A stretch of DNA of 64,000 bases from a virus (lineage: Duplodnaviria > Heunggongvirae > Uroviricota > Caudoviricetes > Crassvirales): IMG/VR virus record IMGVR_UViG_3300032053_000036, positions 1 through 64,000 of that record. One strand, 5' to 3'. The notes beneath the pieces were generated by a model, which worked only from the letters and a program-made list of their open reading frames with translations, was not told the origin of the DNA and ran no database searches. This document shows, in pieces, positions 121 to 42,764 of the stretch. Numbering within the stretch: position 1 is the first letter of the stretch; each line of letters opens with the position of its first letter. A program made the position numbers and the translations under genes.

Positions 121-156
121 TCTATAAAATGGCACTAAACTCATTTTACTGCCAAG

Positions 157-1108: not shown

Positions 1109-1109
1109 G

Positions 1110-1655
1110 TTATTCTATTTTAGCTGTTGAATCAGCAGCTTTTAATGAATCAAGTCTTTGGTTATATGAATTTATAATGCTGTCCAACTGTTCCTGTGTA
1201 AGTAATGGAATCATTGGGGCTATTGTATCTTTCTTTACCTGGTATATAGTGTCAGGCTTTGCTATAATAGGACCATATTTCCATTCATCATACTTTCCTA
1301 GAACATAATCCATCCCTTTATCAAAGAATGTTTCACGATCATTATCTTCATTTGATGCAGATGTTGTAACAAGAGAAGAATGAAACAACATGTAAGTTAG
1401 GCACGACATAAAGAATATAGTCATTAATATTGTTTTAAGTTCATGCAGCCAACCATCATATCTCATTAAGTATTTAGGTTCTATATCCTCTCTACCTCTC
1501 CACACATCTCTTATAATCATCCACCATTTCATTTTAAACTCCTTTGGGTTGATTATTGGAAGAGTTTTTTTCTTATCCCATCCTTCAGGCTTACCATATT
1601 CAAATTTCTTTGTTGTGGTTTCCTCTGTTGTGTATATATTCTCTGGCTTGTTCAT
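1110..1655 (-). CDS. Membrane-anchored protein with a single predicted TM helix (181 aa).
   Basis: Hydrophobic stretch ILMTIFFMSCLTYMLF flanked by charged regions. Confidence 0.45.
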   Translation of the reverse strand: MNKPENIYTTEETTTKKFEYGKPEGWDKKKTLPIINPKEFKMKWWMIIRDVWRGREDIEPKYLMRYDGWLHELKTILMTIFFMSCLTYMLFHSSLVTTSASNEDNDRETFFDKGMDYVLGKYDEWKYGPIIAKPDTIYQVKKDTIAPMIPLLTQEQLDSIINSYNQRLDSLKAADSTAKIE

Positions 1656-22958: not shown

Positions 22959-24095
22959 ATGAGTTGTTCAAATTGCTTCAATGGTTGCGCTGAGATTGTC
23001 TCAGACCAATGCGTTAGATATACAGGAATAGATATTCCTGTTCTAGGAATTAAGAATGGAGATTCTCTATCATTCGTAGAGCAAGCTCTTATAACATTCC
23101 TCACCTCAACATTAGATGGATCAGGAATTAAACCTGACATCAGTTCCACTATTATATGTAACCTTGTTAAAGACTATCTTCCTACGTGTGGAGATCTTAC
23201 AGTGGTAGATTTCTTAACAGCCCTTATAAAAGCCACATGTGATCTCCAGGAACAAGTAGATCTTATAGTTGCAGACATAGTAGTAATCAATAATCAATTA
23301 GATGTAATTGAAGGTGATTATGATGTAAACTGTCTCACAGGTGTAACTGCAGGTAGTGGCACACATGCTGTTCTCCAGGCTACACTAGATGCATTATGTG
23401 CATTTATTGTAGATGTAGAAACAAACTATGTATTGCTTGCTGATTTTAATACATTAGTTGCTGATTATTTAGCAGGTCTTCCTTCAAGTACATTAGTAAG
23501 TCAAAAGATGGTTCCATATGTTGCTTATGAATATTATGGTTCATTAACTCAATTTGATGCTACAGGTAAGGGAATAGGAGATTGGGATAAAATCTATTTA
23601 TGTAATGGATTAAATGGCACTCCTGATAGAAGAGGTGTTGTTGCTGTAGGTGCTATATCAAGTGTTCCTGGTGGACCTCTTCCATCAGCAACAAATCCTG
23701 CATCTTCTCCTTTCAATCCAAACTATGCGTTTGCAGGCCCAATTGTAGGAAGTAATAGTGTTACATTAAATGCTAATCAAATACCAAGTCATGTTCATGA
23801 TAATACATTAGTATTTACTAATCCTGATCATACACATTTTACTTTTACTGCAAATAGTCTTGTAAGTGGTGCAGCTATTATTACTTCTACAACCTCTCCA
23901 GCATATCAGTTAACAGGTGCTGCAGATTTTAGTTATAATATGGTTGGAAACAATGTAACTCCTACAATTGGTTTAACTAGTCCTAGTAAATCAGCTCTTA
24001 CAATAACTCTTACAAACGTTGTTGCTGGTGGAAATCAAGCACATGCTAACAATCAACCAGCAATTGCTGCATATTATATAATGTATCGTCCATAA
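22959..24095 (+). CDS. Tail fibre protein with HxH motifs (378 aa).
   Basis: PSHVHDNTLVFTNPDHTHFTF has two His-x-His motifs, as in metal-binding fibre needle domains. The N-terminus is Cys-rich (CSNCFNGC). Confidence 0.5.
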   Translation: MSCSNCFNGCAEIVSDQCVRYTGIDIPVLGIKNGDSLSFVEQALITFLTSTLDGSGIKPDISSTIICNLVKDYLPTCGDLTVVDFLTALIKATCDLQEQVDLIVADIVVINNQLDVIEGDYDVNCLTGVTAGSGTHAVLQATLDALCAFIVDVETNYVLLADFNTLVADYLAGLPSSTLVSQKMVPYVAYEYYGSLTQFDATGKGIGDWDKIYLCNGLNGTPDRRGVVAVGAISSVPGGPLPSATNPASSPFNPNYAFAGPIVGSNSVTLNANQIPSHVHDNTLVFTNPDHTHFTFTANSLVSGAAIITSTTSPAYQLTGAADFSYNMVGNNVTPTIGLTSPSKSALTITLTNVVAGGNQAHANNQPAIAAYYIMYRP

Positions 24096-25745: not shown

Positions 25746-26915
25746 ATGACAGTAACAATAACATTAACTATTGCTGGTGCTGATACAGGTCCTTTTCTTT
25801 TATTCTCTGATGCAGATGGATATTCTTCTGCATTTGAGGTGGGGGTAACTAAAGCTGCTCTTGAGGCAGGATATACAACAATTCTTGTTCCTCCATTTAC
25901 AACAACAATTAGAGTGATGTCAGCAGGAATATGTACAAACTATATTGATATTCCTATAGACCTTGCTAATTACTGTTACACTGCAAACGTGACAGGAGGA
26001 GGAGGACAATGTACAATTAGTTGGACTAATCCTGATGGAACTGCTAGTAGTGAGATTATTAATGATAAAGTTACAAGTATAACTTTCTGTGCTGAGGAAG
26101 GAAGTGTTAATTCTTTATGTATAGGTGGTGAAGTTTCTACAATTACAGGAGGTACACTTGTTTGTTCAGTTGATGGAGATTGTCCAACAACAACAACTAC
26201 AACTACACAAAATCCATATCTTTTAATAGATATGTGTTTTACTGTTGTTGGTAGAAGTCAAAATTTGTTATGTACTATAACTGGTGTTGGGGGTGTTGCA
26301 ACAGGACTATATAACAATCATCCCTACTATGAATTACTATGTAACTTTAATTGTCCTTTAGGACCAAGTTCAAGAACAGTGTATGTTATATATAGTGTAC
26401 TTAATACTAGATGGGAATCATGGGATACTTTTGATCCTATATTAGGACCTTCAGGAATTTTATTAGCATCTTTAGTTACTACGCAACCATACCCTGAAAT
26501 GCTAACATCTTATTGGGATAATTACACTACAGGTTTTAGATTCTATTCATCTGTTGATGTTAGTAAGGTGGGTGGTGTTTGTGAAACAAATATAAATAGA
26601 ACTGATGTATTTTATGAAGTGGATACATGTTCTTCAGGTGGAGTGTTTGAAATAGATATTGTTGATACTAATTTATTTACTCAAGCTACACCTTATGTTG
26701 GTTCAGGATCTCTTCCAATAACTGTATACCCTGGTTATTTATTGCAAGTTTTTGGAACTACAGGAAGTGGTGGAACTACAACAATAACAATATTAGAAGG
26801 TGCAACTATTGTATTTACAAATACATATCCTCCAAGTACAGTAATTCCACAGTTTGCTGCATCTGTTGTATTAGGATATGATAGTTACACAGTTCAAATT
26901 ATAGAAACTTGTTAA
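25746..26915 (+). CDS. Tail fibre or receptor-binding accessory protein with a poly-Thr linker (389 aa).
   Basis: CSVDGDCPTTTTTTTQNP linker. Its N-terminal module and Cys-rich domain are shared with other genes (see findings). Confidence 0.5.
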   Translation: MTVTITLTIAGADTGPFLLFSDADGYSSAFEVGVTKAALEAGYTTILVPPFTTTIRVMSAGICTNYIDIPIDLANYCYTANVTGGGGQCTISWTNPDGTASSEIINDKVTSITFCAEEGSVNSLCIGGEVSTITGGTLVCSVDGDCPTTTTTTTQNPYLLIDMCFTVVGRSQNLLCTITGVGGVATGLYNNHPYYELLCNFNCPLGPSSRTVYVIYSVLNTRWESWDTFDPILGPSGILLASLVTTQPYPEMLTSYWDNYTTGFRFYSSVDVSKVGGVCETNINRTDVFYEVDTCSSGGVFEIDIVDTNLFTQATPYVGSGSLPITVYPGYLLQVFGTTGSGGTTTITILEGATIVFTNTYPPSTVIPQFAASVVLGYDSYTVQIIETC

Positions 26916-27095: not shown

Positions 27096-28343
27096 ATGAA
27101 TAACAATCAACAGATGATTGAACGATTGAAGGAAATGTTGTATAAGAAAAAAAGTAAAGCATATTATGCAGAAGCTTTAGGGGTAAGTGAAGAAAAGATC
27201 TCAGAACTTTATAAGGAGATGGGTAGACGACAAACAATCAACAGAGCACCAAAGAAGTTACATAGTGCTGCTAATAAATCAGTTAAGTATGAGGAGGATA
27301 TTGTAAGTGGTACAGGTGAGCTAGTTTTTAATACAGATGAGGAAATAAAAAGTCTTGATGATCTTATAAAGAAGTCAAAGATTGATACAGATAAGTGGAA
27401 TATAACTAAATACATACAGAACTATTGGGGGAATACAAACAATCCCTGTTGGCAGGTAAAAGCTTGGTTAAGTAAGAAAGGTGATGAACAGCTCTTTCAG
27501 GATTATTTTGTTGAGTTTCTAACTACCTATAAACCAGTAGCAAAGAAAACATCTGCTCCTAAGGAAACAGATAAATCAGAAGCTTGTCTAATAATAAATA
27601 AACAAGATTCTCATTTAAACAAACATGACATTAATGGTGACAATAAGATTGAATGGAGAGGTGCTGATATTGAAACAAGAGTTAGCACTATACTTGCTCA
27701 GGCAAAACTATCCAATGATCTTACAACAGTCACTTACATAATAGGATCTGATGAGTTTAATAGTGAGTGGACAGGCATGACCACTAAAGGAACTCCTCAA
27801 CAGAACACAGACGATTATCAGAAGTCTTTTGAAGAAATATGTAATCATGAGATAGATATGATTACACTTCTTTTAAGAAATGCCAAGTATGTAGAGGTTA
27901 TATATGTTCCTGGGAACCATGATGAGTATGTAGGGTGGCATTTGATAAAGTGGTTAGATGCATACTTTAGACATGATGTGCAAGATGAAAGAGTGGTGTT
28001 TAATACAGAACCAAGCTATAGGAAGTATATATCCTATGGAACTACAGCAATGATGTTTAATCATGGAGATGCTATAAAGCCTTCAAAGCTTGCAAGTATA
28101 TTTCCAATGGAATTTAGAGATGAGTGGTCATATTATGATCACTTTTATATTTTTACAGGAGATAAACACCATGAGGTTTCACAAGACTTTAATGGTATTA
28201 AGTTCTACCAGATTCCTGCCTTTTCAAAGGCAAAAAGTAAATGGGATGATAAACATGGCTACACTTGCTCTAAAGGAGAGATTACAGCTTTCCTAATAGA
28301 AAAAGGACAAGGCATGACAAACATATTTAAACAGTATTTATAA
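27096..28343 (+). CDS. Calcineurin-like metallophosphoesterase domain protein (415 aa).
   Basis: VIYVPGNHDEY (GNH[DE] motif III), MFNHGDAIKP and IFTGDKHHEV match the phosphoesterase motifs in the right order. Confidence 0.45.
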   Translation: MNNNQQMIERLKEMLYKKKSKAYYAEALGVSEEKISELYKEMGRRQTINRAPKKLHSAANKSVKYEEDIVSGTGELVFNTDEEIKSLDDLIKKSKIDTDKWNITKYIQNYWGNTNNPCWQVKAWLSKKGDEQLFQDYFVEFLTTYKPVAKKTSAPKETDKSEACLIINKQDSHLNKHDINGDNKIEWRGADIETRVSTILAQAKLSNDLTTVTYIIGSDEFNSEWTGMTTKGTPQQNTDDYQKSFEEICNHEIDMITLLLRNAKYVEVIYVPGNHDEYVGWHLIKWLDAYFRHDVQDERVVFNTEPSYRKYISYGTTAMMFNHGDAIKPSKLASIFPMEFRDEWSYYDHFYIFTGDKHHEVSQDFNGIKFYQIPAFSKAKSKWDDKHGYTCSKGEITAFLIEKGQGMTNIFKQYL

Positions 28344-29071
28344 TGTCAACATTAAGAAAACTAGTTTCAGATGTACGATCAATGCATAAGCTTCTATCTA
28401 CAGATAGCTTAATAACAGATCGTGTTATAGCTTCTGAAATCAAAAATAATGCTCAGCTTCTTATAAAGAGAGAAACAAATCTTAGAAAGCTTTGGGCTAC
28501 ATCAACTCTCTTCACTACCATTCCTTGTTTAGAGATGATGGAAGTTTCTATTTCAGAGTGTTGTAATTATGTAGACCCCTGTACAGTGGCAAGAACTAGA
28601 TTCAAGCTCCCAAGAATAGGAGAAGGTAATTACCAATATCTTATACAGGGTGTGTATTCAATTAACGCAATGAGTGGTTCTGGAAAGAAGCTTAAAGAAA
28701 TTACTATCAATAGGTATATAAATCTATTGAAGCTTCCTATTATAAAGAATGAAGAATACTACTGGATTGTGAATGACTACTTGTATGTAAGCAATCCTCT
28801 TCTTCAAGCTATAAGAATAGCTGCATTCTTTGAACAGGATGTTCCTAATGAGATTATGTATCCTGAATGTGATTGTGGAGATGCAAGACCTACAGATGAA
28901 GAGTGGTGTAAAAACCCTTTGGACAAACCTTATGGTCTTCCAGGATACCTAGAGAGTCAAGTTTTACAATTAACATCGCAGAAACTTTTAACTACATATT
29001 TTGCATTGAAAACAGATTTCACAGATAATCAGTTAGATGGACAAGCACCAAACGCACCAGCAGGAAAATAA
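28343..29071 (+). CDS. Virion or tail-associated protein (242 aa).
   Basis: TAATG coupling within the module. Confidence 0.4.
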   Translation: MSTLRKLVSDVRSMHKLLSTDSLITDRVIASEIKNNAQLLIKRETNLRKLWATSTLFTTIPCLEMMEVSISECCNYVDPCTVARTRFKLPRIGEGNYQYLIQGVYSINAMSGSGKKLKEITINRYINLLKLPIIKNEEYYWIVNDYLYVSNPLLQAIRIAAFFEQDVPNEIMYPECDCGDARPTDEEWCKNPLDKPYGLPGYLESQVLQLTSQKLLTTYFALKTDFTDNQLDGQAPNAPAGK

Positions 29072-29550: not shown

Positions 29551-30516
29551 ATGAGCTACTACTATAAATATAATTTCACAACGCCTGAGATAGTTTATTC
29601 CACAGTAAAAGAGGAATTAAAAAGCTATTTTGATACAGGAGCAATTGATGATCTTTTGTTCCCAACCTATCTTGACAAGTGTCTCAGGAAGTTAGGAAGA
29701 ACAACGTATGTCATAGCTGAAACTGCTCTGTTTATAGAAGACTTTCAATGTAGGCTTCCAGATAACTTTTATGCTGTAAGAGAAGCATGGATGTGTTCTG
29801 AAATTCCAGGCAATCCATATCAAGGTGCAAGTTCATTCTATTCCCAAGCTCTTACACAGACAACTATACAAGTGAGTCCTGTAATATCAAACCAAGTGGC
29901 TTGTAATAGTAATTGTCCTCCTAATAATTGTACATGTATGCCAGAACTTATTCAGGCTGTGTATAAAACAAATCAACAGATCCCAAGGTCTTACAAAAAA
30001 CAATATCTCCTGAAACCAGGAAATATTTCTGTTAGACAACATTGTAATGTAGATTATACAAATAATTGGAGCTTTGCACAACAAGGTGTTCCTGTTAATG
30101 AGTTTACACCAGGATCAGCATCTCTTGACTCATTTGATATTAGAGATAATAAGTTTGTTACAAATTTTAGAAATGGTATAGTTCATTTAGTTTTCTATGC
30201 TACAGAGTATGATAATGGTGGGAATCAAATGATTCCAGATAACTATCGTATCAGAGAATATATTGAAGCTTTCATTAAGTTTAAAATGTTTGAAACACTA
30301 ACAAACCAAACAAATGATGAAACCTTTCAACAGCTACAACAAAAGCTTGTATATCACAAGCAATTGTCTGAAGAAGCATTCATCATGGCAGATATTGAAA
30401 TTAAGAAACAAGACGCATATGCTAAACAGAGAAGGATCAAGAATGATCTAAACAGATTTAACATGTACGAATTACCAAATAGAACAAACAGATATGGCTG
30501 GAGAAGAAACAACTAA
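29551..30516 (+). CDS. Tail-associated protein (321 aa).
   Basis: Intact ORF. Its end overlaps the giant ORF by 23 nt. Confidence 0.4.
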   Translation: MSYYYKYNFTTPEIVYSTVKEELKSYFDTGAIDDLLFPTYLDKCLRKLGRTTYVIAETALFIEDFQCRLPDNFYAVREAWMCSEIPGNPYQGASSFYSQALTQTTIQVSPVISNQVACNSNCPPNNCTCMPELIQAVYKTNQQIPRSYKKQYLLKPGNISVRQHCNVDYTNNWSFAQQGVPVNEFTPGSASLDSFDIRDNKFVTNFRNGIVHLVFYATEYDNGGNQMIPDNYRIREYIEAFIKFKMFETLTNQTNDETFQQLQQKLVYHKQLSEEAFIMADIEIKKQDAYAKQRRIKNDLNRFNMYELPNRTNRYGWRRNN

Positions 30517-33500
30517 TCAGGGAAATAACATAAACCCAGAGTATAACGTAGGTAGACTTGGCCTTAATATGGATCAATCTGTTAATCAGATTCCAAAGGG
30601 CACGTTATCTTATGCACTGAACGCTGCTGTTGAGAACTTTGATGCTAATTCTGTCAACTATCAGAATGAGCCAGGTAATGAGTTTTGTCTAAACTTTCCT
30701 ACAGGGTATCATCTTATAGGAGAGCATTTTATAAATGAAAAGAGTAAGCATGTATTCTTCTTAGCAAATCCTGATTCAGAAGAATCTGAGATTGGTTATA
30801 TGGATAATACTGATTGTGTCTATCGCACATTTGTAAATGCTAAGTGTTTAAACTTTAATATAAAAAATCCAATACATAAAGTTGTTCATAAAATATCAAA
30901 CTGTACTACAGAGATATATTGGACAGATGGATTAAATCCTAGAAGATATGTTGATCTTGAGGACATAACAAAAATATATACAGTTACTCCTGGTACAGAT
31001 GTTTGTGATAATCAGCGACTACCTATAATTGATTGTAATAAATTTAAAATACAACCCAACTTTGAAATCCCTGAACTTAGTATTGTAGATGTTAGAAATG
31101 GTGGAGACCTAACAGCAGGAACCTATCAGTTTGCAATACAATATTGTGATTCCTTAGGAACAGGATATACATCATATTATTCTGTAACAAACCCTACACC
31201 AATATTTGATCCTAATAAAGTAACACTTGATTTTAATTATCAAGTGGGTAAGTCTATTGTGGTGAACATCAATAACATAGACATAACAGGATATTTTCAA
31301 TTTTTTAATGTTGCTGTAATTAAAACAGTGAATAATATAAGTTCTGTAGAACTAGTTGGAACATATTTTATAGACAGAGTTACAAAAGAAATCATCTACA
31401 CAGGTCAGAATGTAACACAGATAAGGCTTACAATAGATGATATATTTGAAAAGTTTCCTTACTATGATGTAGCTCAAGATATTACAGCTGTACAGGATAT
31501 TCTTGTATGGGATAATCTTACATCTGCTGAAAGAATAAATTATCAACAAATAGCAAATAGAATAACTCTTCAATGGCAGAGTTATAGAATTCCAAATACA
31601 GAAACATACGCTGATGAATTAAACGCAACTAATCTTCGTGGGTACATGCGTGATGAGGTTTATGCATTTGAAATAGTCTTTCTCCTAAGGAATGGTAAAC
31701 AAACAGATGGCTTTCATATTCCTAGTAGAGCAGTAAATCCTCAAGATGTTGTTCTTGTTGATGAGACAAATCAAGACTTTATAGGAGAACCTGAAACAAC
31801 AGTTGGTAACTTAGGCTATAGTCCTTATTGGAAAATATATAACACAGCATACAAAGTTGCAGATGCTCCAGGTAAAACAGGACTATCTTCTTACAAAGGA
31901 GACTGGGAATATGGTGAGTTTGCATATTGGGAATCAACAGAAACCTATCCTTGCAATGAGGAAGTTTGGGGTGATCTTTCAAACCAACCAATCAGACATC
32001 ACAAGTTTCCTGATGTTCTCGTAAGTCCTATATTTGAAAGTCCTACAATAGCAATTGATGGTAATGGAAAGTATGCTCCTGTAACACAAAAAGATGCCAT
32101 CTATCCACTTGGTGTAAAACTTGACGTTGCTCAAGTGCTTACATTAATACAGCAATCAAATCTAACAGCTGATCAAAAGGCAGAAGTTGTAGCATTTAAA
32201 ATAGTGAGAGGTGATCGTGGCACAAACAAGTCTGTAATTGCAAAAGGTATATTGAGGAATGTAGGAAAGTATAGTAGAGAAGGAACAGACTATTACTATC
32301 CAAACTATCCATACAATGATCTTAGACCAGATCCATTTATCAATGATGCAAGTAATGCGTACACCACTGCATTCATCTCAGGACTAAATGCAAGCATTAC
32401 GTGTAGAAGTTTTACAATCACAGCTAAGACAGACTCTGTAATTGAATATCAAAGTTGTGCAACAACATTAACAGATACAATAGAAGTTAAAGCTGGTGAG
32501 GTAAAAGAAGTGTGTTCTTTTGATTTTCCAAAACCAAAAATTATATCAGGACAAGCTTTTATAACATGCAATACATATAAAAGATATAGTATCTATGCAC
32601 GGGGAGGAGAGTTTAATATTACATGGCCTCATATTCCTGGAGTTAACAACTGGCCTTATTTTAGACCAATAGGAACGAATCAAGCAGATCCTGATAATTA
32701 TCCTTATGGGGCACCACCATTAGGATACTCTTCTTGGGAGTTATATTGTATTGATAATCCAGGTAACACTGCTTGTGCATCTTGTTTAAATCCAAATGCT
32801 ACATGGAATCCTGGATGGCCTACAGAGTTTTGGTATTCTCATTATTGTGGAAGATATGATGCTAGAGATTGTGGGTATACTTGGTATGTAGATTCTATTG
32901 TTCCTCCTGTATGGAATGGTGTAGGCTATACTAGTTTTATAATAAAAGAAGTAGCATCCTTTAATAAAGGTAATTGTACACCAAACCCTTTAGATGGGTT
33001 TAAATTTCCTGAGGCTGCATATAGACTTGTATTTAATTCTCCTGAAACATCATTTGGACAACCATTCCTTGGAAATATTCTAAGACTTGAGAATGTAATG
33101 TATGGAGCTGGTCATGCTCATTTTGTACAAGTAAAAGGTAATGCAAACTATAAACTTCTTACAGCTGAGGCTCAAGGAGATGCTCTTGATTCATCACTTA
33201 ATCTTGCAAATATTACAGGAACATTTGATCCTGCAGCTATGTTTGTTGCCTACCAAGCATATCTAACAATATATGTAAATGGTATCACAAGAAGAAACTA
33301 TGCATATTCATTCAACTCTATTGCTGGGTATGATTATTCTTCAATTATAGCAAATGGTCTTGGTGTAAAACAAAGAGAGATAGATCTTACACAATATCTT
33401 ATTCCTGTTGTACAAAATGTTGGAGATGATCATAGTATAAATAACTGGTATAGAGAATCCTCTGTATACATTAAAACTAATAGTAACACAGATACATATG

Positions 33501-36500
33501 ATGTTCCATATATAGTTTATGAGATTTGTAACAATTCAATATTCCCTCTTAATAATTTAAGAGTTCAAATAACAGATCCAGCTACAGGAGTGACAATAGT
33601 TACTATTCCTGGTGCAAGCACTTGTATAAATTATAACTCAACAACCTACCCTGTTCGTATTTCTGGTCCTTCAACCTATACAATTACAGCATTAGGTAAT
33701 GGTGTACAGCCTGTAGCTTTAACAAGATCAGCTCTACCTTTTCCAAGTAATACACCAAGTCTTTCTCCTGGAGGAGTTAGTCTTATAGAGGATGATACAA
33801 GATTTATTCTTTCTGATGCCACAAGAGGTGGTGATTGTAATAAGCCTCAGAAGGAACTAGATACAAAAGTGGTTGCATACTATGCATCTATGAAGAATGA
33901 TTTTGTTAATCAGTGGGGACAGATGTATTCATATGATACTATCGACACAGGATTTCAAAGAAATATTGATCTTCAAAAAGCATTAAATCCATATGCTCAA
34001 GGAACTGTAACAGTGTTTGGTGGAGATACATTTATTAATAAGTTTGCATTCAAAACAAAGCTTCCATTCTTTATAGATAACAGAGTGAATGCTCCTGATG
34101 ATTCAGATATATTCTACGATGAGATTGGTAATGTTGCCTATCCTACATACTGGCACTCTGCAAGATCTGTACTAGGAAATTACTTTGCTGGAAATGTAGT
34201 TGGTACTAGTGATGTAGACATGACAAATATGATCTCTATAAAAGCTCATAATTTTGATTGTCCTAATAGCCAAACTCCTAAAGCAAACAATCCTGGAAGA
34301 ACTTATTATGATGGTAAGTTTTATCTATTTGCTTATGGTGTTCCATCATTCTATTGTGAGAGTGTAGTGAACGTAGATCTTCGTCAAGCATTTAATAATA
34401 GAGAAGGAGAATTCTGGCCTCATGTAAGCACAAGTATTCCTGATGATTGGTTCCAAGAGAATTTTGTAACTATTGCTCAGGATAATACATACTATTATAA
34501 TGTTACATTCTCTAAACAGAATAGAGAAAACTATTTCTCACATCTACCTGTAGATTGGGAAAAGAAACTTTGTTACACTTATTATCCATTCAGAGCTATA
34601 TATTCTGATATGCAAATAGACATTGTAACAAATCAAACAAACAACTGGTTGATTTATCGTCCAGTGTCTTATTTTGATTTTCCTCAGAACTATGGTAAGC
34701 TTACATCATTAGATGGTGTTCAGAATAAAGAGATTCTTGCAAGGTTTGAGAACAAGACACTTCTATACAATCAGTTGATAACAATTGATACAAGTAATCC
34801 AAAAGCTGCATACATAGGAAACAGTAAATTATTTGAAGGAGCTCCTCCTGTAGATTTTGCAGATACAGACCTTGGCTACATAGGATGTCAGAACAAGATG
34901 TTATTAAAGATTCCACAAGGACAAGTTACAGTTGATGCTAAAAGAGGACAAATATTTCTTTTAACAGGACAAGGTGCAAAAGATCTTTCTGCATTTGGTT
35001 CAGGATTGAATAGATTCTTTACAGACCACTTAGCCTTTGAAATCCTTAGATATTTCCCTGAGGTGGATACAGATAATCATTTTGATGGTATTGGATTACA
35101 TGGTGTATACGATTCTAAGTATGATAGAATCATAATAACAAAACTTGACTACATTCCAGTTGCAGGAAAGAATGTAATGTTTGATGCTATAAACAATAAG
35201 TTTTATGTAGAGAGAATCTTAGGAAATGCAACAATTATAGATGAGGTTTTTGTAACAGATTATGAATACTTCTGTAATAAATCATGGAGTCTTTCATTCA
35301 ACTTCAATACAAACAGTTGGATCAGTTTCCATAGCTATATTCCAAACTGGTATGTAGCTGAGAACAACTTCTTCTATTCAGGACTTAATGGAGGTTGTGA
35401 CATTGCTGCTATTGCGTATGAGGAAGTCATATACACCACATCAAGTACAACTACTCCTTGTATAGGATGTAAACCTCCAGAGTCTACAACATCAACAACA
35501 ACAGTTTATGTAGATTGTGATCTCGAAGGAACAGCTATATTAGAACCAGAACCAACAACCACTACCACTAGTTCTAGCAGTACAAGCACATCTACTAGCA
35601 CAAGTACGACAACTATAACTACAACACTTTGTCCTTCATGTAGTACATACACAGTAACAAACTCAACAGCATTTTCACAACCAGTTACAATAACATCATG
35701 TTATACAAATGAAGAGTTTGTAGTTTATGTAAGTGCAAATAGTTTCATAAATATATGTTCTTGTATACCACCAGAAGTTACAATTGGTGTAACACAATCA
35801 CTTCTTGCAGAAGAGTGTGTTGGTTGCTTCTGTTATACAGTAACAAATGATACAGGAAAAGATTCAGACTTTAGTTACACCACGTGTAATGGTGTAGATT
35901 TAACTCTATCAATATTGAATGGACAATCACTACAAGTTTGTGCTCAACAGTTTTCAGTGACATCATTCTTCCCAGTCTTAATAGAAGGAGGAATGCTTCC
36001 TTGTAGTGTGGATGGAGATTGTACACCAATACCTACAACTACAACTACCAGTAGTTCTACAAGTACAACTACTACCACTACAACAGTGGGTCCTATAAGT
36101 GTACCTCTTTGTGCAGTTCTTTATAATGATACTGATGGACTAATCTACTACTATAATCTCATAACAGATACTTCAACGTTATTGCCTGTACCAGCAACTA
36201 GTTCAATGTACAATCTTGACATTGCTCACACTCAGAATAAATTATGGACACTTTCAACTAATAAACTTTTAGAATGGGACATAACACTAACTCCATTCAC
36301 TGCAGTGTATAATAGAAATATAACTTTACCACACATAGTTGGAGTAGGATTAGGTGCAATAAATGATACAACATTAATTTCTGTAAATCCTCTAACTACA
36401 CCTCAGAGTGTTGTTACATTAGATATATCAATAACTCCTGCAACATCAACTTATAAGTTTGATATGATTGCTAATAGAACAGTTGCTGGAGATATTCTAC

Positions 36501-39013
36501 TTACAACAAATAATAAAGTTTTAATATTGACTGGATCGTATATTGATGGTAGTCAGTATATAACTCAGTATGATTATCTCACTGGTTCTGTAGAAGTTGA
36601 TATTCAAGTTTCTCCAACTATAAATAATCCTTTTGGGTTATTTGAAGATAGTGGAGACATTTACATAATGGAAACATTTCCTCCAGGAAATGTGTATAAA
36701 ATTGATCTTACGCCTCCTTATGGACTAACTTCAATGGGAAGTACAATATCCTATGTAAATGGTGCATCACAAGTACCAAGTTGCCTAACAGTTTCTTTTG
36801 AAGCAACTACTACCACAACAACCACCACTATAAGTGGGCCTAGATCATGGTATATTGATGGTAGAGGAAAAGGATGTACTGATTGTACAGATTTAATATT
36901 TATTGGATCATTTAGAAACGTTGAACCTCTTACTGTTGGTAAATGGTATTTGTTTGATGGTGCTCCTGATTTTCCATCACCAACAAGACTTCTTGTAGAA
37001 AATGTGAATCCTGTTGAGCCATATGCACCAAGTTTCTTTGTTCATGATGCAGATCAACTTGCTACTTGTGAGGATGTTATATGTCCTACAACAACTACAA
37101 CTACTACCATACCACCTACAACAACTACTACAACAACAGTTCAAAACTTTGCTAAATGTGCTGATTGTACTCCTACATTATCTGATGTTACAATTAATGG
37201 TGTTGGTTTATTAGGTGTAGGTAATATGATTTCTAGTCTATGTACTCTTGGTGATTATGTTATAGATTGGTATTTAGATAGTGCATCAGGTCCTATAGAA
37301 TTTACATCTGGTAACACTGGTAATACAGATCCTGCCATTCAACAGTTCCATCCATTTACAGGAAGTGCAGCAAGACCTTCTAAAGGAGGATCTTGGATTC
37401 CTGTAATCAGATATGCATTCTTAGATGGTATAGAATATACTTCTGTAATAACTCCAGGGGTAGCATACGCAAGTGATCTTGCAACATGTCTTGCACCAAT
37501 AACAGTTCTAGATCTTAATTGTACTAATGGAACAAATACCACTGTAGGATTTGAACAATACTCTCACAAGTTTGCATATTTAAATGGTAATCAAGTTGCA
37601 TCAGATGCTTCTAAATCATTAGTGTTCACTCTTAACTCTGATGGATCTACACAATACTTTGCATGGTATTTTGCTGGGTATAATGTAGCTGATAGGATTA
37701 AATTTACATATGTAAGTCCTTTGAACAGTACATCAAATCTTCTTCAAGATTTTGCAATTGGGTATGATGTTTCAACTAACTTCACAGGAACAACTAAGAA
37801 AGTAAGTTCTGGTACTTATAAGTATGTAATAGACTTTACAGGAATAACGTATGCTACAGGTGATTATATTTTAATTGATATTATAGCAAACTATGTAACG
37901 CTTACTACTAATACAAACTGGACAGTATATTTCAAATGCTTAACAACATTTGATACAACATGGGCAGCTACAACAGGATTAGTTCCTTGTAGTTCAACAA
38001 TGACATTTAATCCTACCACATGTTTAATATCAGCAACTGAAACTGTTACAGGTTATTTTGACAAGAAAAATACAGACATCTATAAATATCTTGTTACAGT
38101 TGATTCAATAGCTGGAAATACATCTCCTAGTGAAGCTGTTCCAACAACTAGTGCTCTTCTTAGTGCAGGAAAATATGATTGTACTTATGGTTGTAGTGCT
38201 GGTGGTTCAATAAATTACAACCCTGCTTGTGCACCAGCTACAGGAACAATTACTTTTAGTAGAACAAATGACACTTACACTCTTGTTTACAGTAATATTG
38301 CTGAGTACAATAAAGCATTAAATGATTATAATGCTGCGCAAGCTTCATTATCAGCAACATACACAAGCGATCCAACAAACATAAATCATTATAAGTTCTA
38401 TGAATTCTTCTTTTATAAATTTAATAATGATAGTTGTGGCGATACAACAATTACAAATCGTAATACAATTGTACACTATGATTCAACATTTACATTTGAT
38501 TTAGGAACACTTACATTAACAGTGGTAGCAGTTCCTATTGATGCATCTGCATATTATGCAACATTACCAACCAGTGATTGTAATGGAAATTGTGATAATT
38601 TAATATTAGTTGGAATTGCTAATTCTGCAGCAGGATCTGGTACAAGTGCTCCTATCACTACAGGAACAGATGTTGTTCATCCAATTTGTGGATTTGGATA
38701 TTGTCAAACTATAGGGCAAGATGTAAAAGCAAATGTATATAGACTATATGTATACAACTTACCATATTGGCCAATTGTACCAATTACTATAGCTAACAAC
38801 TGGCATAGTCAAAATATAAATCCAAGTGCAGCTATAAATAGAGCATATTATTATGACTATAATTTAGACTTTAATATTACTAACGTTCTTGATCCAACAA
38901 ATAACTTTAATGTTAGTAATCATTTAAGTGTAGATGGTACATACAATTCAACAGGTACAGTGGTGTATGAAAAAATAGCAGGAGTGGTAACAACACCAAT
39001 TGGAGGATGCTAA
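30494..39013 (+). CDS. Giant modular receptor-binding/tail protein (2839 aa) with at least five poly-Thr/Ser linkers and repeated Cys-rich modules.
   Basis: Uninterrupted 8.5-kb ORF. Linkers at about 35480-35640, 36033-36090, 36805-36830 and 37087-37140. Many Cys pairs. Confidence 0.55.
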   Translation: MAGEETTNQGNNINPEYNVGRLGLNMDQSVNQIPKGTLSYALNAAVENFDANSVNYQNEPGNEFCLNFPTGYHLIGEHFINEKSKHVFFLANPDSEESEIGYMDNTDCVYRTFVNAKCLNFNIKNPIHKVVHKISNCTTEIYWTDGLNPRRYVDLEDITKIYTVTPGTDVCDNQRLPIIDCNKFKIQPNFEIPELSIVDVRNGGDLTAGTYQFAIQYCDSLGTGYTSYYSVTNPTPIFDPNKVTLDFNYQVGKSIVVNINNIDITGYFQFFNVAVIKTVNNISSVELVGTYFIDRVTKEIIYTGQNVTQIRLTIDDIFEKFPYYDVAQDITAVQDILVWDNLTSAERINYQQIANRITLQWQSYRIPNTETYADELNATNLRGYMRDEVYAFEIVFLLRNGKQTDGFHIPSRAVNPQDVVLVDETNQDFIGEPETTVGNLGYSPYWKIYNTAYKVADAPGKTGLSSYKGDWEYGEFAYWESTETYPCNEEVWGDLSNQPIRHHKFPDVLVSPIFESPTIAIDGNGKYAPVTQKDAIYPLGVKLDVAQVLTLIQQSNLTADQKAEVVAFKIVRGDRGTNKSVIAKGILRNVGKYSREGTDYYYPNYPYNDLRPDPFINDASNAYTTAFISGLNASITCRSFTITAKTDSVIEYQSCATTLTDTIEVKAGEVKEVCSFDFPKPKIISGQAFITCNTYKRYSIYARGGEFNITWPHIPGVNNWPYFRPIGTNQADPDNYPYGAPPLGYSSWELYCIDNPGNTACASCLNPNATWNPGWPTEFWYSHYCGRYDARDCGYTWYVDSIVPPVWNGVGYTSFIIKEVASFNKGNCTPNPLDGFKFPEAAYRLVFNSPETSFGQPFLGNILRLENVMYGAGHAHFVQVKGNANYKLLTAEAQGDALDSSLNLANITGTFDPAAMFVAYQAYLTIYVNGITRRNYAYSFNSIAGYDYSSIIANGLGVKQREIDLTQYLIPVVQNVGDDHSINNWYRESSVYIKTNSNTDTYDVPYIVYEICNNSIFPLNNLRVQITDPATGVTIVTIPGASTCINYNSTTYPVRISGPSTYTITALGNGVQPVALTRSALPFPSNTPSLSPGGVSLIEDDTRFILSDATRGGDCNKPQKELDTKVVAYYASMKNDFVNQWGQMYSYDTIDTGFQRNIDLQKALNPYAQGTVTVFGGDTFINKFAFKTKLPFFIDNRVNAPDDSDIFYDEIGNVAYPTYWHSARSVLGNYFAGNVVGTSDVDMTNMISIKAHNFDCPNSQTPKANNPGRTYYDGKFYLFAYGVPSFYCESVVNVDLRQAFNNREGEFWPHVSTSIPDDWFQENFVTIAQDNTYYYNVTFSKQNRENYFSHLPVDWEKKLCYTYYPFRAIYSDMQIDIVTNQTNNWLIYRPVSYFDFPQNYGKLTSLDGVQNKEILARFENKTLLYNQLITIDTSNPKAAYIGNSKLFEGAPPVDFADTDLGYIGCQNKMLLKIPQGQVTVDAKRGQIFLLTGQGAKDLSAFGSGLNRFFTDHLAFEILRYFPEVDTDNHFDGIGLHGVYDSKYDRIIITKLDYIPVAGKNVMFDAINNKFYVERILGNATIIDEVFVTDYEYFCNKSWSLSFNFNTNSWISFHSYIPNWYVAENNFFYSGLNGGCDIAAIAYEEVIYTTSSTTTPCIGCKPPESTTSTTTVYVDCDLEGTAILEPEPTTTTTSSSSTSTSTSTSTTTITTTLCPSCSTYTVTNSTAFSQPVTITSCYTNEEFVVYVSANSFINICSCIPPEVTIGVTQSLLAEECVGCFCYTVTNDTGKDSDFSYTTCNGVDLTLSILNGQSLQVCAQQFSVTSFFPVLIEGGMLPCSVDGDCTPIPTTTTTSSSTSTTTTTTTVGPISVPLCAVLYNDTDGLIYYYNLITDTSTLLPVPATSSMYNLDIAHTQNKLWTLSTNKLLEWDITLTPFTAVYNRNITLPHIVGVGLGAINDTTLISVNPLTTPQSVVTLDISITPATSTYKFDMIANRTVAGDILLTTNNKVLILTGSYIDGSQYITQYDYLTGSVEVDIQVSPTINNPFGLFEDSGDIYIMETFPPGNVYKIDLTPPYGLTSMGSTISYVNGASQVPSCLTVSFEATTTTTTTTISGPRSWYIDGRGKGCTDCTDLIFIGSFRNVEPLTVGKWYLFDGAPDFPSPTRLLVENVNPVEPYAPSFFVHDADQLATCEDVICPTTTTTTTIPPTTTTTTTVQNFAKCADCTPTLSDVTINGVGLLGVGNMISSLCTLGDYVIDWYLDSASGPIEFTSGNTGNTDPAIQQFHPFTGSAARPSKGGSWIPVIRYAFLDGIEYTSVITPGVAYASDLATCLAPITVLDLNCTNGTNTTVGFEQYSHKFAYLNGNQVASDASKSLVFTLNSDGSTQYFAWYFAGYNVADRIKFTYVSPLNSTSNLLQDFAIGYDVSTNFTGTTKKVSSGTYKYVIDFTGITYATGDYILIDIIANYVTLTTNTNWTVYFKCLTTFDTTWAATTGLVPCSSTMTFNPTTCLISATETVTGYFDKKNTDIYKYLVTVDSIAGNTSPSEAVPTTSALLSAGKYDCTYGCSAGGSINYNPACAPATGTITFSRTNDTYTLVYSNIAEYNKALNDYNAAQASLSATYTSDPTNINHYKFYEFFFYKFNNDSCGDTTITNRNTIVHYDSTFTFDLGTLTLTVVAVPIDASAYYATLPTSDCNGNCDNLILVGIANSAAGSGTSAPITTGTDVVHPICGFGYCQTIGQDVKANVYRLYVYNLPYWPIVPITIANNWHSQNINPSAAINRAYYYDYNLDFNITNVLDPTNNFNVSNHLSVDGTYNSTGTVVYEKIAGVVTTPIGGC

Positions 39014-39027
39014 TAAATAATTAAACT

Positions 39028-39909
39028 ATGTCAAAAGTAATAACCATAAAATTAACAAAGGCAGGATCAAGAACTGGTCCTTTTGATGTAACAGATAACT
39101 TTGGTGACGTCTTAGGAACTTCTGTTCCTAAGAGTTCTCTTATTGCAGGGCTTACAGTTACAATAGATGATGGTGTATCTGTTATAATAATAAAGTCTGT
39201 AAAGGGATGTGGTACAAACTGCGAGGTGGAAATAAGAATTCCTATTACACAGCTTACAATATTAGATGTTGTAGGACTTACGTTCACCAATACAAACACT
39301 GCATCACTCTGGAGACATCTTACAAACCCAAGGATATACAACTACTATTATAATACAATATATCCTTACATAATAGAATATCCTTTTACATATCAGTTCA
39401 ATGATGAAATCTTACAGAATGTAAAAGACTACACTAAGGCATATCAATATCTTGACATGCCTGATGGTGTATGGAATTACAATAATAGAATTGAGACAGA
39501 TGATGTTTGGTTTAACAAAGCTGTTCTATATAATGGTCAGCAGTCTTCTGGTGTGTTAGAACTTGTTCCTAAACCATTACGTAATCTCAGTGAATACATG
39601 AAATATCCTATTTACAACACTGATAGTAAAACAATCACTTACACAAAGAGTGATAACTTCTATCAATACAATACATTCTGGTCTTTGGTGAAAGACAAAA
39701 GAACACCTATGTTTGTAACAGACTGTTGTTCAACTCTCTCCTTGGATAAATTAGTGAACCAACCAAACATGGACTATGGAAAAAGATCATTTAAGAAGGA
39801 ACCTCTAAGAGCAAAAGAATTAAAAGTAAGACACATATTAGATAATCGCTCAGATGCACATTTAACTAGTCAGTTCATTGTGACTCCAGCACAAATCTCT
39901 TATAAATAA
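39028..39909 (+). CDS. Tail accessory protein (293 aa) whose N-terminal module is shared with 25746..26915.
   Basis: MSKVITIKLTKAGSRTGPFDVTD versus MTVTITLTIAGADTGPFLLFSD. Confidence 0.45.
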   Translation: MSKVITIKLTKAGSRTGPFDVTDNFGDVLGTSVPKSSLIAGLTVTIDDGVSVIIIKSVKGCGTNCEVEIRIPITQLTILDVVGLTFTNTNTASLWRHLTNPRIYNYYYNTIYPYIIEYPFTYQFNDEILQNVKDYTKAYQYLDMPDGVWNYNNRIETDDVWFNKAVLYNGQQSSGVLELVPKPLRNLSEYMKYPIYNTDSKTITYTKSDNFYQYNTFWSLVKDKRTPMFVTDCCSTLSLDKLVNQPNMDYGKRSFKKEPLRAKELKVRHILDNRSDAHLTSQFIVTPAQISYK

Positions 39910-42764
39910 TGCCTGACAAAAAACCCAAATATCAAACTCTGCCAGGAGTAATTATAAACGCTAAGCGTAAGTATAAAACGCTTCCAGGAATCACTGTGAA
40001 CGCTAAGACTAAAAAGAAAGCATCAAGTACAACAGATTGGAAGATGACTCCTTCAAGAAATGTATCAGAGTCTACATCTCCAGCATCAACAAGACTTAAG
40101 CAAAATATTGAATTAGAGAATGATGTTGATCAGTATAAAAGAATGAATCGTGATGGGCTGAAAGAAATATCAAAAGAAGATTTTAATAATATCCCAGAAC
40201 GTGATACTAGATCTTGGTGGAGTGATTCTAGAGCAAAAGAAAGAGGGGATGCTTTTTGGAATGGTACAAAAAAAGTAACAGCAGTTGGTCAATTTTCTCC
40301 TGAGCCAGTATCAAGATATTCATCAATTGCATTAAACTCATTAATGGGAGCAGCAGATACATACTTCTCAATAGAAGATGGTGATCTTACTAATGCAAAA
40401 ATTAATGCAATTGGAGCAATTCCTCTTCCAGGATATGGTAGCATTAAAGCATTAAAAAATGTGCCAGGTCTTAGCAATAGACAAAAACTTAGTATATTAA
40501 AAACATCCTTGTCAACACTTGGAGTTGATTTATTTGGAACAGTTGCAGATCTTACAGATAACTTTGGTCTTGAACAACAAAAGAATGGTGGAACTTCTAG
40601 CAAAACAGTAACTTGTACATGTGGACATTCCTGGGATAAATCAGATTCTAGTAAGAAGGATGCAACAGTGTGTCACATCTGTGGAAAGAATAATATGAAA
40701 GATGGTGGTTGGTTAGATAAATATCAAGATGATATCACTCCTGCTAAAGCTCAGAAGGGTAATAAAGTTATTATAGATGGAAAGGAGTATGATACAGATA
40801 GTAATGAGTATAGAAATATGCTTGATAAGGGACAAGTTGGTACAATGAAAGATGATGTTTGGTATGGTAATAAATCAGAACTTCAACCAGTTACAATTTA
40901 CAGTAGTAAAGATAAAAACACTCAAAAGTTTTATGATAGATTAAAAGATGAAAATGGTCTTACAACTTATGAATCATTATTAAAACTAGGAGCAAAATAT
41001 GGAGCTCCTCATGTTACTATAAAAGATAAACCTGGTTTTTTTGATCCAAAGTATACTAATTACCCAGATAGAGTAAGACCTCATTACGATCCTCTTTCTC
41101 AAAATATAACTTTAGGAAATGATCCTTATACCTGGTATGATGAATATATATCAGAATTAGCACATCAAAAACAATTAATGAATAAAGGAGCTTTAGATTT
41201 TGTAATGAGAGGTGTAGAAAACTTTCCTCGTATTGTAAAAAATAAAATTGATCCAAATAAAAAAGGTTATAATGAAGAATATGATATTCCAGGATCTATA
41301 GAATATGAAGCTCATAAAAAAATTGAACCTGAATTAATAAAAGAATTTGATGATATATGGTATAAAAAATCTTATGAGGGAGATTATTATGAAAAGCCTG
41401 GTACATTTAGTTCATCTAAACCTAATGCAACATTTAAATCAGGAGGTTGGTTAGATAAATACGGTAAAGAAATAAACGCTAATGAAGGACGTTCTTCTGC
41501 TCCAGAGAACTGGGTAGGAGAAGGATATAGTAATGTAGGTAGAAACTATTCTCCTGCATGGGGTGGACAGTTTGCAATGGGAGGTTCTCTTCCTGGTTCT
41601 GTAGGATTCACATACGCACGTACACAAGACGCTGCTCCTGTTAATGGTCCTTATGCTAAGAAGACAAAAGCTTCTGCACAGAATGGACAAGTGCCTTACA
41701 ATATAAATGATATACAATCAGAACTTCGTAATTTTATTAAACAAGGAGAAAAATTAAAAGAATACCCTAATATAAAAACAAATATATACAAAAATAAATT
41801 ACTTACAGATAAATTGAATAATTTAAATAATAGTATACCTAACTATTCAACTGTTGTAAAAAAACAAAAAGAAGGTGGAATAATAGAAGATGATAGAGGA
41901 CAATGGGCACATCCTGGAAAGATAACAAAGATCAACTCTAATCAAATAACAATGAAAGGTGTGGACTATCCTGTACTAGGAATATCAGATGCAGGTGATC
42001 AACAAATGATGTACCCAGAACAAGAATATACATTTAAAGGAAAGAAGGTTACAGAATTCCCTATGGCTCAAGATGGTACAAGGATGCCCATATATACAAC
42101 AGATCCTAAAAAGATACAGGCATATGCTGATAGTTTAGCATTACACAATATATCATTAAATTGTTTTAATTTAACTAAAAAATTTGCTGAAACACTTGGA
42201 AAAGGAAAAGATTATAATAAATCTGTATTAGCACAGAAAGCAGCAAATGATGCAGAACTATGGAGAACTGATGTTACAAATAGTTATAATAACCTTTCTA
42301 GTTTAAATAAAAAAGAACCTACTCCTGTAGAACGTATAGAAAATATTCCTCTAAGTGAACAAGAGAAGAAAGGTTGGGATATTCATGGGATTTATTCAGC
42401 TGAGCTATATAAAAAACCAGTACAGCCATATATACTAAAAAAAGAAGAAGAACCTACATTAAAAAGAAAACCTGTAAAGGTGGAAACTATAAAGTCTAAG
42501 TCTGCAAGCACACCAGGTTTAAAAACTATACCAGGCACTCCTGTAGAACAACAACCTGTTCCACAGAGAGGAGAATACAGAGTGAGCTATTACAATCCTG
42601 ATATAAAAGATTGGAGTGAACAAGCGTTCCAGACAGAAAAAGAAAGTGAAAAGTTTGCTAGTGAGATGAGTGGACGAGGATATGGAGGTTCATATGGCAA
42701 TGTCACTCAAACTAGAAAAGTTAACAAAAAAGAGAATGGTGGTTGGTTAAGTCAATATAAATAA
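39909..42764 (+). CDS. Cargo/ejection-type virion protein 1 (951 aa) with a zinc ribbon and GGWL(D/S)xY repeats.
   Basis: CTCGHSWDK...CHICGK ribbon, GGWLDKY x2 plus a C-terminal GGWLSQY, GAIPLPGYG motif, Lys-rich composition. Confidence 0.45.
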   Translation: MPDKKPKYQTLPGVIINAKRKYKTLPGITVNAKTKKKASSTTDWKMTPSRNVSESTSPASTRLKQNIELENDVDQYKRMNRDGLKEISKEDFNNIPERDTRSWWSDSRAKERGDAFWNGTKKVTAVGQFSPEPVSRYSSIALNSLMGAADTYFSIEDGDLTNAKINAIGAIPLPGYGSIKALKNVPGLSNRQKLSILKTSLSTLGVDLFGTVADLTDNFGLEQQKNGGTSSKTVTCTCGHSWDKSDSSKKDATVCHICGKNNMKDGGWLDKYQDDITPAKAQKGNKVIIDGKEYDTDSNEYRNMLDKGQVGTMKDDVWYGNKSELQPVTIYSSKDKNTQKFYDRLKDENGLTTYESLLKLGAKYGAPHVTIKDKPGFFDPKYTNYPDRVRPHYDPLSQNITLGNDPYTWYDEYISELAHQKQLMNKGALDFVMRGVENFPRIVKNKIDPNKKGYNEEYDIPGSIEYEAHKKIEPELIKEFDDIWYKKSYEGDYYEKPGTFSSSKPNATFKSGGWLDKYGKEINANEGRSSAPENWVGEGYSNVGRNYSPAWGGQFAMGGSLPGSVGFTYARTQDAAPVNGPYAKKTKASAQNGQVPYNINDIQSELRNFIKQGEKLKEYPNIKTNIYKNKLLTDKLNNLNNSIPNYSTVVKKQKEGGIIEDDRGQWAHPGKITKINSNQITMKGVDYPVLGISDAGDQQMMYPEQEYTFKGKKVTEFPMAQDGTRMPIYTTDPKKIQAYADSLALHNISLNCFNLTKKFAETLGKGKDYNKSVLAQKAANDAELWRTDVTNSYNNLSSLNKKEPTPVERIENIPLSEQEKKGWDIHGIYSAELYKKPVQPYILKKEEEPTLKRKPVKVETIKSKSASTPGLKTIPGTPVEQQPVPQRGEYRVSYYNPDIKDWSEQAFQTEKESEKFASEMSGRGYGGSYGNVTQTRKVNKKENGGWLSQYK

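Follow-up and report, generated by a model that had tools for sequence, protein, structure and literature searches.

A tail-tip muzzle encoded in two pieces, with a variable string of linker-joined modules at the break, in a clade of uncultured crAss-like phages

Among the closest described systems, the muzzle gp44 of Bacteroides phage crAss001 is a hexameric gatekeeper at the tail tip, and contact with the cell was proposed for its tip (Bayfield et al. 2023, PMC10172136). The tail of this phage is stabilised by disulfides, and the length variation reported for the muzzle is confined to insertions within its crass and IG2 domains (PMC10172136). The gene order in crAss001 is gp43 (R1) followed by gp44 (muzzle). 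In the papers found on the muzzle, the protein is treated as a conserved single polypeptide, with no mention of a split or of an extension at the junction or terminus. A hexamer that closes the tail tip, built with a seven-bladed propeller, IG1, IG2, and the crass fold, counts as characteristic of the muzzle family. Two further muzzles, gp30 of Flavobacterium phage Fpv1 (1783 aa) and XAI97387 of Leptolyngbya phage Lbo-JY46 (1654 aa), are likewise uninterrupted. Both are collinear with the two consecutive reading frames described below, a giant ORF and the following ORF293, and both lie in the same neighbourhood, which in Fpv1 has an exonuclease gene located 5' of the ring protein genes. At the position equivalent to our break, however, neither carries Ser/Thr (S/T) linkers or appended modules.

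The window, i.e., the entire 64-kb stretch of DNA analysed out of a genome of ~115 kb, is a structural block of an uncultured crAss-like podovirus, and a near-DNA search among 50,697 phage records returned no match to it. TerL, the portal, and the Crass_capsid major capsid protein are encoded 5' of the giant ORF, followed by Ring 2 and Ring 1 (Table 1), with the ring protein 1 gene directly 5' of the muzzle gene as in crAss001. A separate tail-fibre-like gene with a PHROGs tail fiber match is located upstream at 22959..24095. Against the Pfam profile PF25731 crAss_MUZ, the giant scored 116.2 bits at a gathering cut-off of 27 (E = 1.9e-33), with three stretches covered and the best match at aa 23-312. 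In PHROGs, it matched phrog_37948 at 1.7e-97 and phrog_15100 at 1.3e-26, both annotated as 'virion structural protein'. Profile score and position after the ring genes thus both place it in the muzzle family, and judged from the sequence, the protein is the main body of a crAss-type tail-tip muzzle with an appended string of ~1200 aa. The first-pass annotation had called it a receptor-binding giant. This name does not fit the first ~58% of the protein, which is the muzzle, a tail-tip gatekeeper, while receptor binding may well apply to the appended string, although Pfam and PHROG fibre or receptor-binding families did not match anywhere in these C-terminal 1200 aa.

A tblastn search of the phage records with the giant (aa 16-1632) retrieved distant relatives only, namely Lbo-JY46 (35%), Cellulophaga phi4:1 and phi17:2, csAssE-Sib, and the Flavobacterium FpV phages. 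The 35% identity to the Lbo-JY46 muzzle CDS extends across aa 40-1631. With regard to gp44 itself, aa 1283-1493 of the giant were 23% identical to residues 967-1151 (215 aa). The hhalign alignment of the two muzzles had a low probability and stopped at gp44 residue 1153, and the muzzle end was therefore mapped via Fpv1 and Lbo-JY46. A phmmer search with the muzzle body found nothing among the PDB sequences.

Table 1. Positions of the muzzle pieces, the appended modules and the related upstream gene in the window, with the alignments that locate the break.
Feature	Residues (aa)	Position (nt)	Strand	Remarks
Gene 25746..26915, N-terminal 'TGPF' domain	1-73	25746..25964	+	
Gene 25746..26915, Cys module F	74-146	25965..26183	+	Subtype without C3 and C23
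Gene 25746..26915, poly-Thr linker	147-155	26184..26210	+	
Gene 25746..26915, C-terminal domain	156-389	26211..26912	+	Recurs in P0052
Tail ring protein 2 (context)		28343..29071	+	Pfam PF25702 CrAss_Ring_2, E = 1.2e-17
Tail ring protein 1 (context)		29551..30516	+	Pfam PF24228 CrAss_Ring_1, E = 4.2e-8
Giant ORF		30494..39013	+	2839 aa
Muzzle body	giant 1 to ~1640	30494..35413	+	End ...NNFFYSGLNGGCD
First S/T linker region	giant 1647-1711	35432..35626	+	Single-Cys mini-motifs CIGC, DCDLEGTA
Cys module A	giant 1712-1775	35627..35818	+	Iterated profile, E = 1e-5
Cys module B	giant 1776-1846	35819..36031	+	Module of the first-pass annotation
S/T linker	giant 1847-1865	36032..36088	+	
Module C, five-bladed beta-propeller (predicted)	giant 1866-2103	36089..36802	+	
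S/T linker	giant 2104-2114	36803..36835	+	
Module D, small	giant 2115-2197	36836..37084	+	83 aa; low-confidence model
Double S/T linker	giant 2198-2216	37085..37141	+	
Module E, terminal, beta-rich	giant 2217-2839	37142..39010	+	623 aa; ends ...GGC
ORF293, C-terminal muzzle piece		39028..39909	+	293 aa; next ORF after the giant
ORF293, N-terminal 'TGPF' domain	1-75	39028..39252	+	Common to gene 25746..26915
ORF293, muzzle C-terminal part	92-293	39301..39906	+	phrog_15100, Lbo-JY46 and Fpv1 matches
Alignment, giant to Lbo-JY46	giant 1100-1631			Lbo-JY46 muzzle CDS 956-1455
Alignment, ORF293 to Lbo-JY46	ORF293 92-279			Lbo-JY46 muzzle CDS 1461-1640, E = 2.8e-24
Alignment, giant to Fpv1	giant 1594-1637			Fpv1 gp30 1547-1590
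Alignment, ORF293 to Fpv1	ORF293 93-293			Fpv1 gp30 1589-1783, E = 4.7e-12

The rest of the muzzle is found in ORF293. Its aa 92-291 aligned with positions 1588-1781 of the 1783 in phrog_15100 (E = 1.3e-8); the start of the giant matches the first 400 positions of this family and ORF293 the last 200. In Lbo-JY46 and Fpv1, both parts fall within one annotated CDS and abut within 0-5 residues: giant residue 1631 corresponds to Lbo-JY46 residue 1455 and ORF293 residue 92 to 1461, while in gp30 the corresponding pairs are 1637 with 1590 and 93 with 1589. The domain PF25729 crAss_MUZ_C is located at residues 1597-1706 of gp30 and in gp44 immediately behind the PF25731 match, and the break can therefore be equated with the junction of the body and the C-terminal domain. 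ORF293 alone remained below every Pfam threshold, its assignment being made through PHROG and the pairwise matches to single-CDS muzzles. According to these alignments, the muzzle gene is interrupted exactly at the body/C-terminal domain junction in this phage clade. Like crAss001 gp44, the locus holds an N-terminal 1640 aa that fit the family profile, a gene position after rings 2 and 1, and a C-terminal domain. Unlike in gp44, the body and this domain are separate, the body carries the 1200-aa string at its break point, and the complete muzzle is encoded as two proteins instead of one polypeptide comprising the body and the PF25729 domain.

The giant terminates with TAA TAA, and the next ATG follows 14 nt downstream in a different frame. 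The material inserted at the junction comprises aa 1640-2839 of the giant, the stop, the start, and aa 1-91 of ORF293. All related loci of sufficient extent encode the ORF293 homologue as an ORF of its own, the spacing and frame between the two muzzle parts vary among relatives, and approximately 20 related loci carry one or two extra small genes between them. Stop-codon recoding or readthrough was considered as a cause of the split and is ruled out by the double TAA, the differing frames, and the variable spacing. An intein or intron origin of the insert appears unlikely since Pfam found no family within the inserted 1200 aa. For annotation, this arrangement implies that a small ORF behind an apparently 'truncated' muzzle may be its missing C-terminal domain. 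It also shows that a large machine protein can be broken at a domain junction and take up more than 1000 extra residues there.

The appended string consists of modules separated by seven S/T-rich linkers (aa 1647-1655, 1663-1671, 1687-1711, 1847-1865, 2104-2114, 2198-2206, and 2208-2216), and the mini-motifs of the first linker region recur in relatives. One further linker is present in gene 25746..26915, and the earlier description of a modular protein with poly-Thr linkers is accurate. The same holds for the proposed homology of a Cys-rich module between the two genes, which was recovered at the positions originally given (Table 1). By BLASTP, aa 1776-1846 of the giant and aa 74-146 of the smaller protein were 36% identical over 72 columns (E = 5e-4). 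The Smith-Waterman score of 83 compares with 28.1 ± 5.4 in 2000 composition-preserving shuffles (z = 10.3), none of which scored as high, and the identity did not vanish in a proper alignment. In both copies, the module closes with CSVDGDC and a poly-Thr tract follows. A correction is required for the size of the module, which had been put at ~130 aa. Since an iterated profile also recovers aa 1714-1777 of the giant (E = 1e-5), this stretch comprises two tandem units of ~68 aa, A and B, which are weak paralogues (pairwise z = 4), and gene 25746..26915 has one such unit. A two-sequence profile found no further copy among all ORFs of the window. At the DNA level, the two genes share 76% identity over 63 nt at the GG..CSVDGDC/poly-T boundary and otherwise only short ACN-repeat matches, and the limited similarity indicates that the sharing of the module is old rather than the result of a recent exchange.

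When 1.84 billion representative proteins were searched exhaustively with HMMER, 59 proteins with the Cys module were recovered at E <= 1e-3 and eight at E <= 1e-10, many of them with several copies and poly-T/P linkers in between. Word-indexed protein searches, conducted with a single sequence and with a 46-sequence profile, found P0001 only. Five weaker hits rich in cadherin/VCBS-type repeats (P0058, P0062, P0067, P0091, and P0107) lack the cysteines, probably represent profile drift, and were left out of the alignment. The resulting consensus, xxCxCYTxxN...YxxCxG...ICAxxGxV...ITGGxxxCxxxxDC, was not matched by Pfam models or by known Cys-rich or repeat families such as the SprB repeat, and on this sequence basis the module is assigned to a previously unnamed ~68-aa domain family. 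Across 147 distinct copies, C3 covaries with C23 (phi = 0.88, p = 3e-15) and C5 with C68 (phi = 0.65, p = 7e-18), while C41 and C62 are nearly invariant. Because of this pattern, the module probably contains three disulfides. The AF2 model (pLDDT 93) has the fold of a generic small beta-sandwich without a ligand-site match.

With these data, an artefactual origin of the observations can be judged. Low-complexity ACN repeats are prone to misassembly, and the ORFs of many relatives end within a linker, so the giant ORF could in principle be a chimeric assembly across poly-Thr repeats and the Cys resemblance a chance compositional match. However, the identical 2839-aa protein occurs on seven metagenomic contigs from several samples and different assemblers, and the giant is therefore not an assembly chimera. 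The same module order was moreover found in three relatives (L009, P0057, and P0036). Chance similarity conflicts with the z-score over shuffles, the independent recovery of the family in 59 representatives, and the confident AF2 model. We consider an artefact hardly conceivable.

Module C is confidently predicted to be a five-bladed beta-propeller. Its best fold matches are glutaminyl cyclase, YjiK, and olfactomedin at 8-15% identity, and there is a structural link to the propeller of phage phi11 Gp45. Module D neighbours module C in only one relative (P0031), and its low-confidence model gave no fold assignment. Module E is itself sub-modular (E1 ~2217-2483, E2 2484-2839), and its model reached a pLDDT of 70-90 for most residues, with low confidence for the first ~100. 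Its homologues (P0002-P0015, P0021, P0026, P0027, P0034, and P0049) share 28-66% identity and nearly always carry it at the C-terminus; a further 31% identity links it to the 735-kb uncultured phage LR756501. No relative of module E was found among PDB sequences or the top fold matches. Many proteins of varied length contain homologues of C and E, with C often repeated, and these carriers also hold SprB, fn3, cadherin, LRR_5, Laminin_G_3, or Fib_succ_major domains.

The composition of the string differs widely between relatives. Scanning IMG/VR for the muzzle end returned at least 412 contigs with relatives, up to about 110-117 kb in length, and 80 loci were kept. In 31 diverse clade members, the muzzle core, i.e., the last ~580 body residues, is 64-73% identical to the window. 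The string behind the conserved NNFFYSG motif ranges from 17 to 1692 aa and exists in 66 distinct versions in the 80 loci, which bears out the module shuffling suggested by the first-pass annotation. Nearly all strings start with S/T linkers. They comprise between zero and three Cys modules, in some cases also C or E, and many further modules. In total, 87 modules with a length of 40 aa or more were counted in the relatives; they fall into at least 29 sequence families, including 16 singletons. The locus thereby displays a hypervariable distal part on a conserved anchor, which is a trait of receptor-binding proteins. In P0057, modules A and B and a propeller are kept, with a Fib_succ_major domain in place of module E; the same contig has a second muzzle break ~65 residues earlier, where another linker and propeller are appended. 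Near-clonal contigs with 99.2% nucleotide identity over 21 kb have an invariant giant gene but vary in the next-but-one gene, 39909..42764, within its C-terminal half. Since these strains are identical at the giant locus, it is not the variable one on short time scales.

Neither modular receptor-binding proteins nor multi-module proteins with S/T linkers are new. The arrangement resembles Gp45 of the S. aureus phage phi11 (PDB 5efv) in combining a conserved virion anchor with exchangeable distal modules. In our case, however, the anchor is the tail-tip gatekeeper rather than a fibre shaft or baseplate adaptor, and the modules are held by poly-Thr tethers instead of trimeric coiled or beta-helical shafts, with no evidence of trimerisation. 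Carbohydrate-active enzymes bearing CBMs and Bacteroidota adhesins (SprB, cadherin-like, Fib_succ_major) share the beads-on-string layout with Thr/Ser/Pro linkers. They differ from our locus in that the carrier is here a virion protein, and the Cys module and propeller are essentially absent from 185,579 bacterial and archaeal GTDB species genomes.

We lean towards the interpretation that the split muzzle, together with its tethered and swappable modules, acts as a multivalent device for host adhesion. The junction holds a cassette in which ~1200 aa of S/T linkers, alternating with independently folding modules, are fused to the body and are followed by the double stop, the 14-nt spacer, and a new start with a 75-aa N-domain fused to the muzzle C-part. 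The polypeptides of the body and ORF293 presumably reassemble into one muzzle. Provided that this is a hexamer like that of crAss001, the tail tip of a virion would bear six flexible tethers, and each tether would display two 68-aa beta modules with putatively three disulfides, the five-bladed propeller, module D, and the 623-aa module E. Such tethers could provide multivalent, long-reach adhesion to glycans or proteins of the host surface before the muzzle opens. They would establish the first contact and set the host range, with specificity being changed by the replacement of whole modules. This provides a concrete testable candidate for host-range setting in uncultured environmental crAss-like phages.

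The tethered modules might instead be generic decoration, comparable to the Ig-like domains of capsids and tails, and retain the virion on particles, capsule, or mucus-like polymers, if they do not simply serve as spacers and stalks. Such a role would suit the mostly proximal and tandem position of the Cys modules, which appears stalk-like, as well as their generic fold lacking a ligand-site match. The unvarying giant locus of near-clonal strains and the dedicated tail-fibre-like gene upstream also agree with it, and separate tail-fibre-like genes such as 22959..24095 may be the main receptor-binding proteins. However, the wholesale replacement across the clade, with the core conserved, is what specificity determinants usually show, and the receptor-binding protein of phage phi11 uses a five-bladed propeller as its receptor-binding platform. 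Furthermore, the Cys module is the terminal module in some relatives, and the domain that takes the place of module E in P0057, Fib_succ_major, is a cell-surface protein domain. We therefore regard mere decoration as unlikely compared with host adhesion.

Module E could also have an enzymatic role, e.g., as a depolymerase. In a broader form of this idea, module E or the propeller would be a tethered polysaccharide depolymerase or esterase that clears the capsule to give the muzzle access to the outer membrane. The size of module E, its beta-rich character, and its nearly always terminal position speak for this idea, and the work on crAss001 stresses the crossing of a 30-nm capsule (PMC10172136). 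On the other hand, no catalytic family was matched in Pfam or among PDB sequences, and the best matches of the propeller are non-glycosidases of low identity. A tethered enzyme is accordingly rated as improbable, below generic decoration, and adhesion by the tethered modules remains the preferred explanation.

The modules are not restricted to the giant. In an all-versus-all comparison of the structural proteins of the window, exactly two inter-protein similarities were found, and both involve the 389-aa product of gene 25746..26915: one is the Cys module shared with the giant, the other the N-domain shared with ORF293 (BLASTP of ORF293 aa 1-75 versus aa 1-73, E = 1e-6). A jackhmmer search detected 163 copies of this N-domain in the window and related loci, with 161 situated at the N-terminus of a protein. 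The extra small genes between the muzzle parts are built from an N-domain, a poly-T linker, and a variable module, and gene 25746..26915 follows this plan with an N-domain, a Cys module, a linker, and a C-domain. In its Cys module F, C3 and C23 were lost jointly, and an alternative Cys pair was acquired. P0052, encoded in the tail block of another crAss-like contig, contains two copies of the C-terminal domain, both of them preceded by a pair of Cys modules. The N-domain and the Cys module appear to belong to a phage-borne toolkit of modules on which small genes like this one also draw. The gene had been labelled a fibre gene, which is plausible from its modular plan and its syntenic position, where relatives have similar modular genes, but no family match backs the label: Pfam and PHROG contained no matching family, and tblastn against the phage collection gave no match.

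On a larger scale, we propose only tentatively that the clade (>400 IMG/VR contigs) has made the tail-tip gatekeeper its host-recognition scaffold, with the junction as a cassette site at which tethered adhesion modules are gained, lost, and exchanged through recombination between linker repeats. Host range would then be determined at the muzzle rather than, or besides, at the side fibres, and the shared 75-aa N-domain would mark a matching set of free-standing modular proteins. The linker DNA of gene 25746..26915 matches that of the giant linkers over 17-24 nt at 85-100% identity, and low-complexity linker DNA made of ACN repeats is probably the recombination joint. The crassvirus muzzle, so far described as a conserved gatekeeper that varies in its surface insertions, appears here as a split protein with a combinatorial hot spot for module display. 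Independent of the tentative reading, two unannotated domain families, the 68-aa Cys module and the 75-aa N-domain, can be added to databases.

With regard to the origin of the modules, peptide-pattern scans of 185,579 GTDB species genomes detected no relative of the Cys module and a single relative of the propeller, located on a 1.8-kb MAG contig. As far as these scans reach, the modules appear to be phage-borne, and a host-derived origin is unsupported within the limits of the peptide patterns used. O-glycosylation of the Thr linkers, which had been suggested earlier, is unsupported at this locus as well: the scanned ORFs of the window, which covers 64 kb of the ~115-kb genome, contain no glycosyltransferase, and homologues of the glycosyltransferases of relatives are absent from the window and the 80 clade loci. 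In three more distant contigs, glycosyltransferase genes directly adjoin module-bearing genes.

ORF293, which encodes the C-terminal part of the split muzzle, begins with the same 75-aa N-terminal domain as the 389-aa modular gene 25746..26915, and in some relatives this domain opens two to four proteins per locus. Searches of the domain against Pfam and PHROG gave no match, and it may serve for anchoring. One or two additional small genes separate the ORF for the muzzle body from the homologue of ORF293 in the related contig L017 and in some 20 further loci of relatives; each of these genes is built from the N-terminal domain, a poly-T linker and a variable module. Many of the muzzle-body ORFs in these loci end within a poly-T linker. 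Another relative, L006, shows a second break site approximately 65 residues upstream of the usual one, and its upstream muzzle ORF has a separate poly-S/T linker and a propeller-like module at its end; thus, this contig has at least two muzzle breaks. The coordinates of these and further features are summarized in the table below.

Features of the window and of related loci
Feature	Location	Remark
75-aa N-terminal domain, ...AGxxTGPF...	window 39028-39252; 25746-25964	ORF293; gene 25746..26915
Extra small gene(s) between muzzle-body ORF and ORF293 homologue	L017:10968-11612	also ~20 other related loci
Additional muzzle break	L006:2-3273	one relative
951-aa gene	window 39909-42764	C-terminal half exchanged between close contigs
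Single-Cys motifs CIGC; VDCDLEGTA	window 35459-35551 (giant aa 1656-1686)	between linkers
Part of module E	window 37208-38485 (giant aa 2239-2664)	similarity to 735-kb phage
Glycosyltransferase	L007:16283-17836	PF05704/PF04488
Glycosyltransferase	L093:15435-15992	PF00777
Three consecutive glycosyltransferase genes	L092:3378-7964	308-kb contig
DNA repair exonuclease-like gene	window 27096-28343	phrog_704, E = 2.7e-46
4402-aa ORF	window 49478-62686	no Pfam family

Just 3' of the split muzzle, the first 597 residues of the 951-aa product are 99% identical to homologues of 1253 and 1264 aa, relative to which the C-terminal half has been swapped out, while the contigs carrying these homologues share 99.2% nucleotide identity elsewhere. 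Judged from these sequence comparisons, the gene is a recombination hot spot.

Within the 2839-aa muzzle-body ORF (the giant), the single-Cys motifs have 'DCxLEG'-like counterparts at the same position in relatives, and they might form inter-chain disulfides. The listed part of module E, its terminal module, matches an unannotated region of the uncultured phage LR756501/LR756503 with 31% identity (E = 5e-42).

In the more distant contigs L007, L093 and L092, module-bearing tail genes adjoin glycosyltransferase genes, and none of the latter were found in the loci of this clade.

With regard to the layout of the window, the exonuclease-like gene lies within the tail-gene block, directly upstream of the ring protein genes, and Flavobacterium phage Fpv1 carries an exonuclease gene at the same location. 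The 4402-aa ORF, following the muzzle and cargo-like genes, corresponds in position to the virion RNA polymerase/cargo block of crAss001. No tRNA genes were found within the 64 kb. At approximately 8 kb, gene orientation flips from small minus-strand ORFs upstream to the plus-strand structural block downstream, and the sign of the GC skew changes near the same point, coinciding with this switch.
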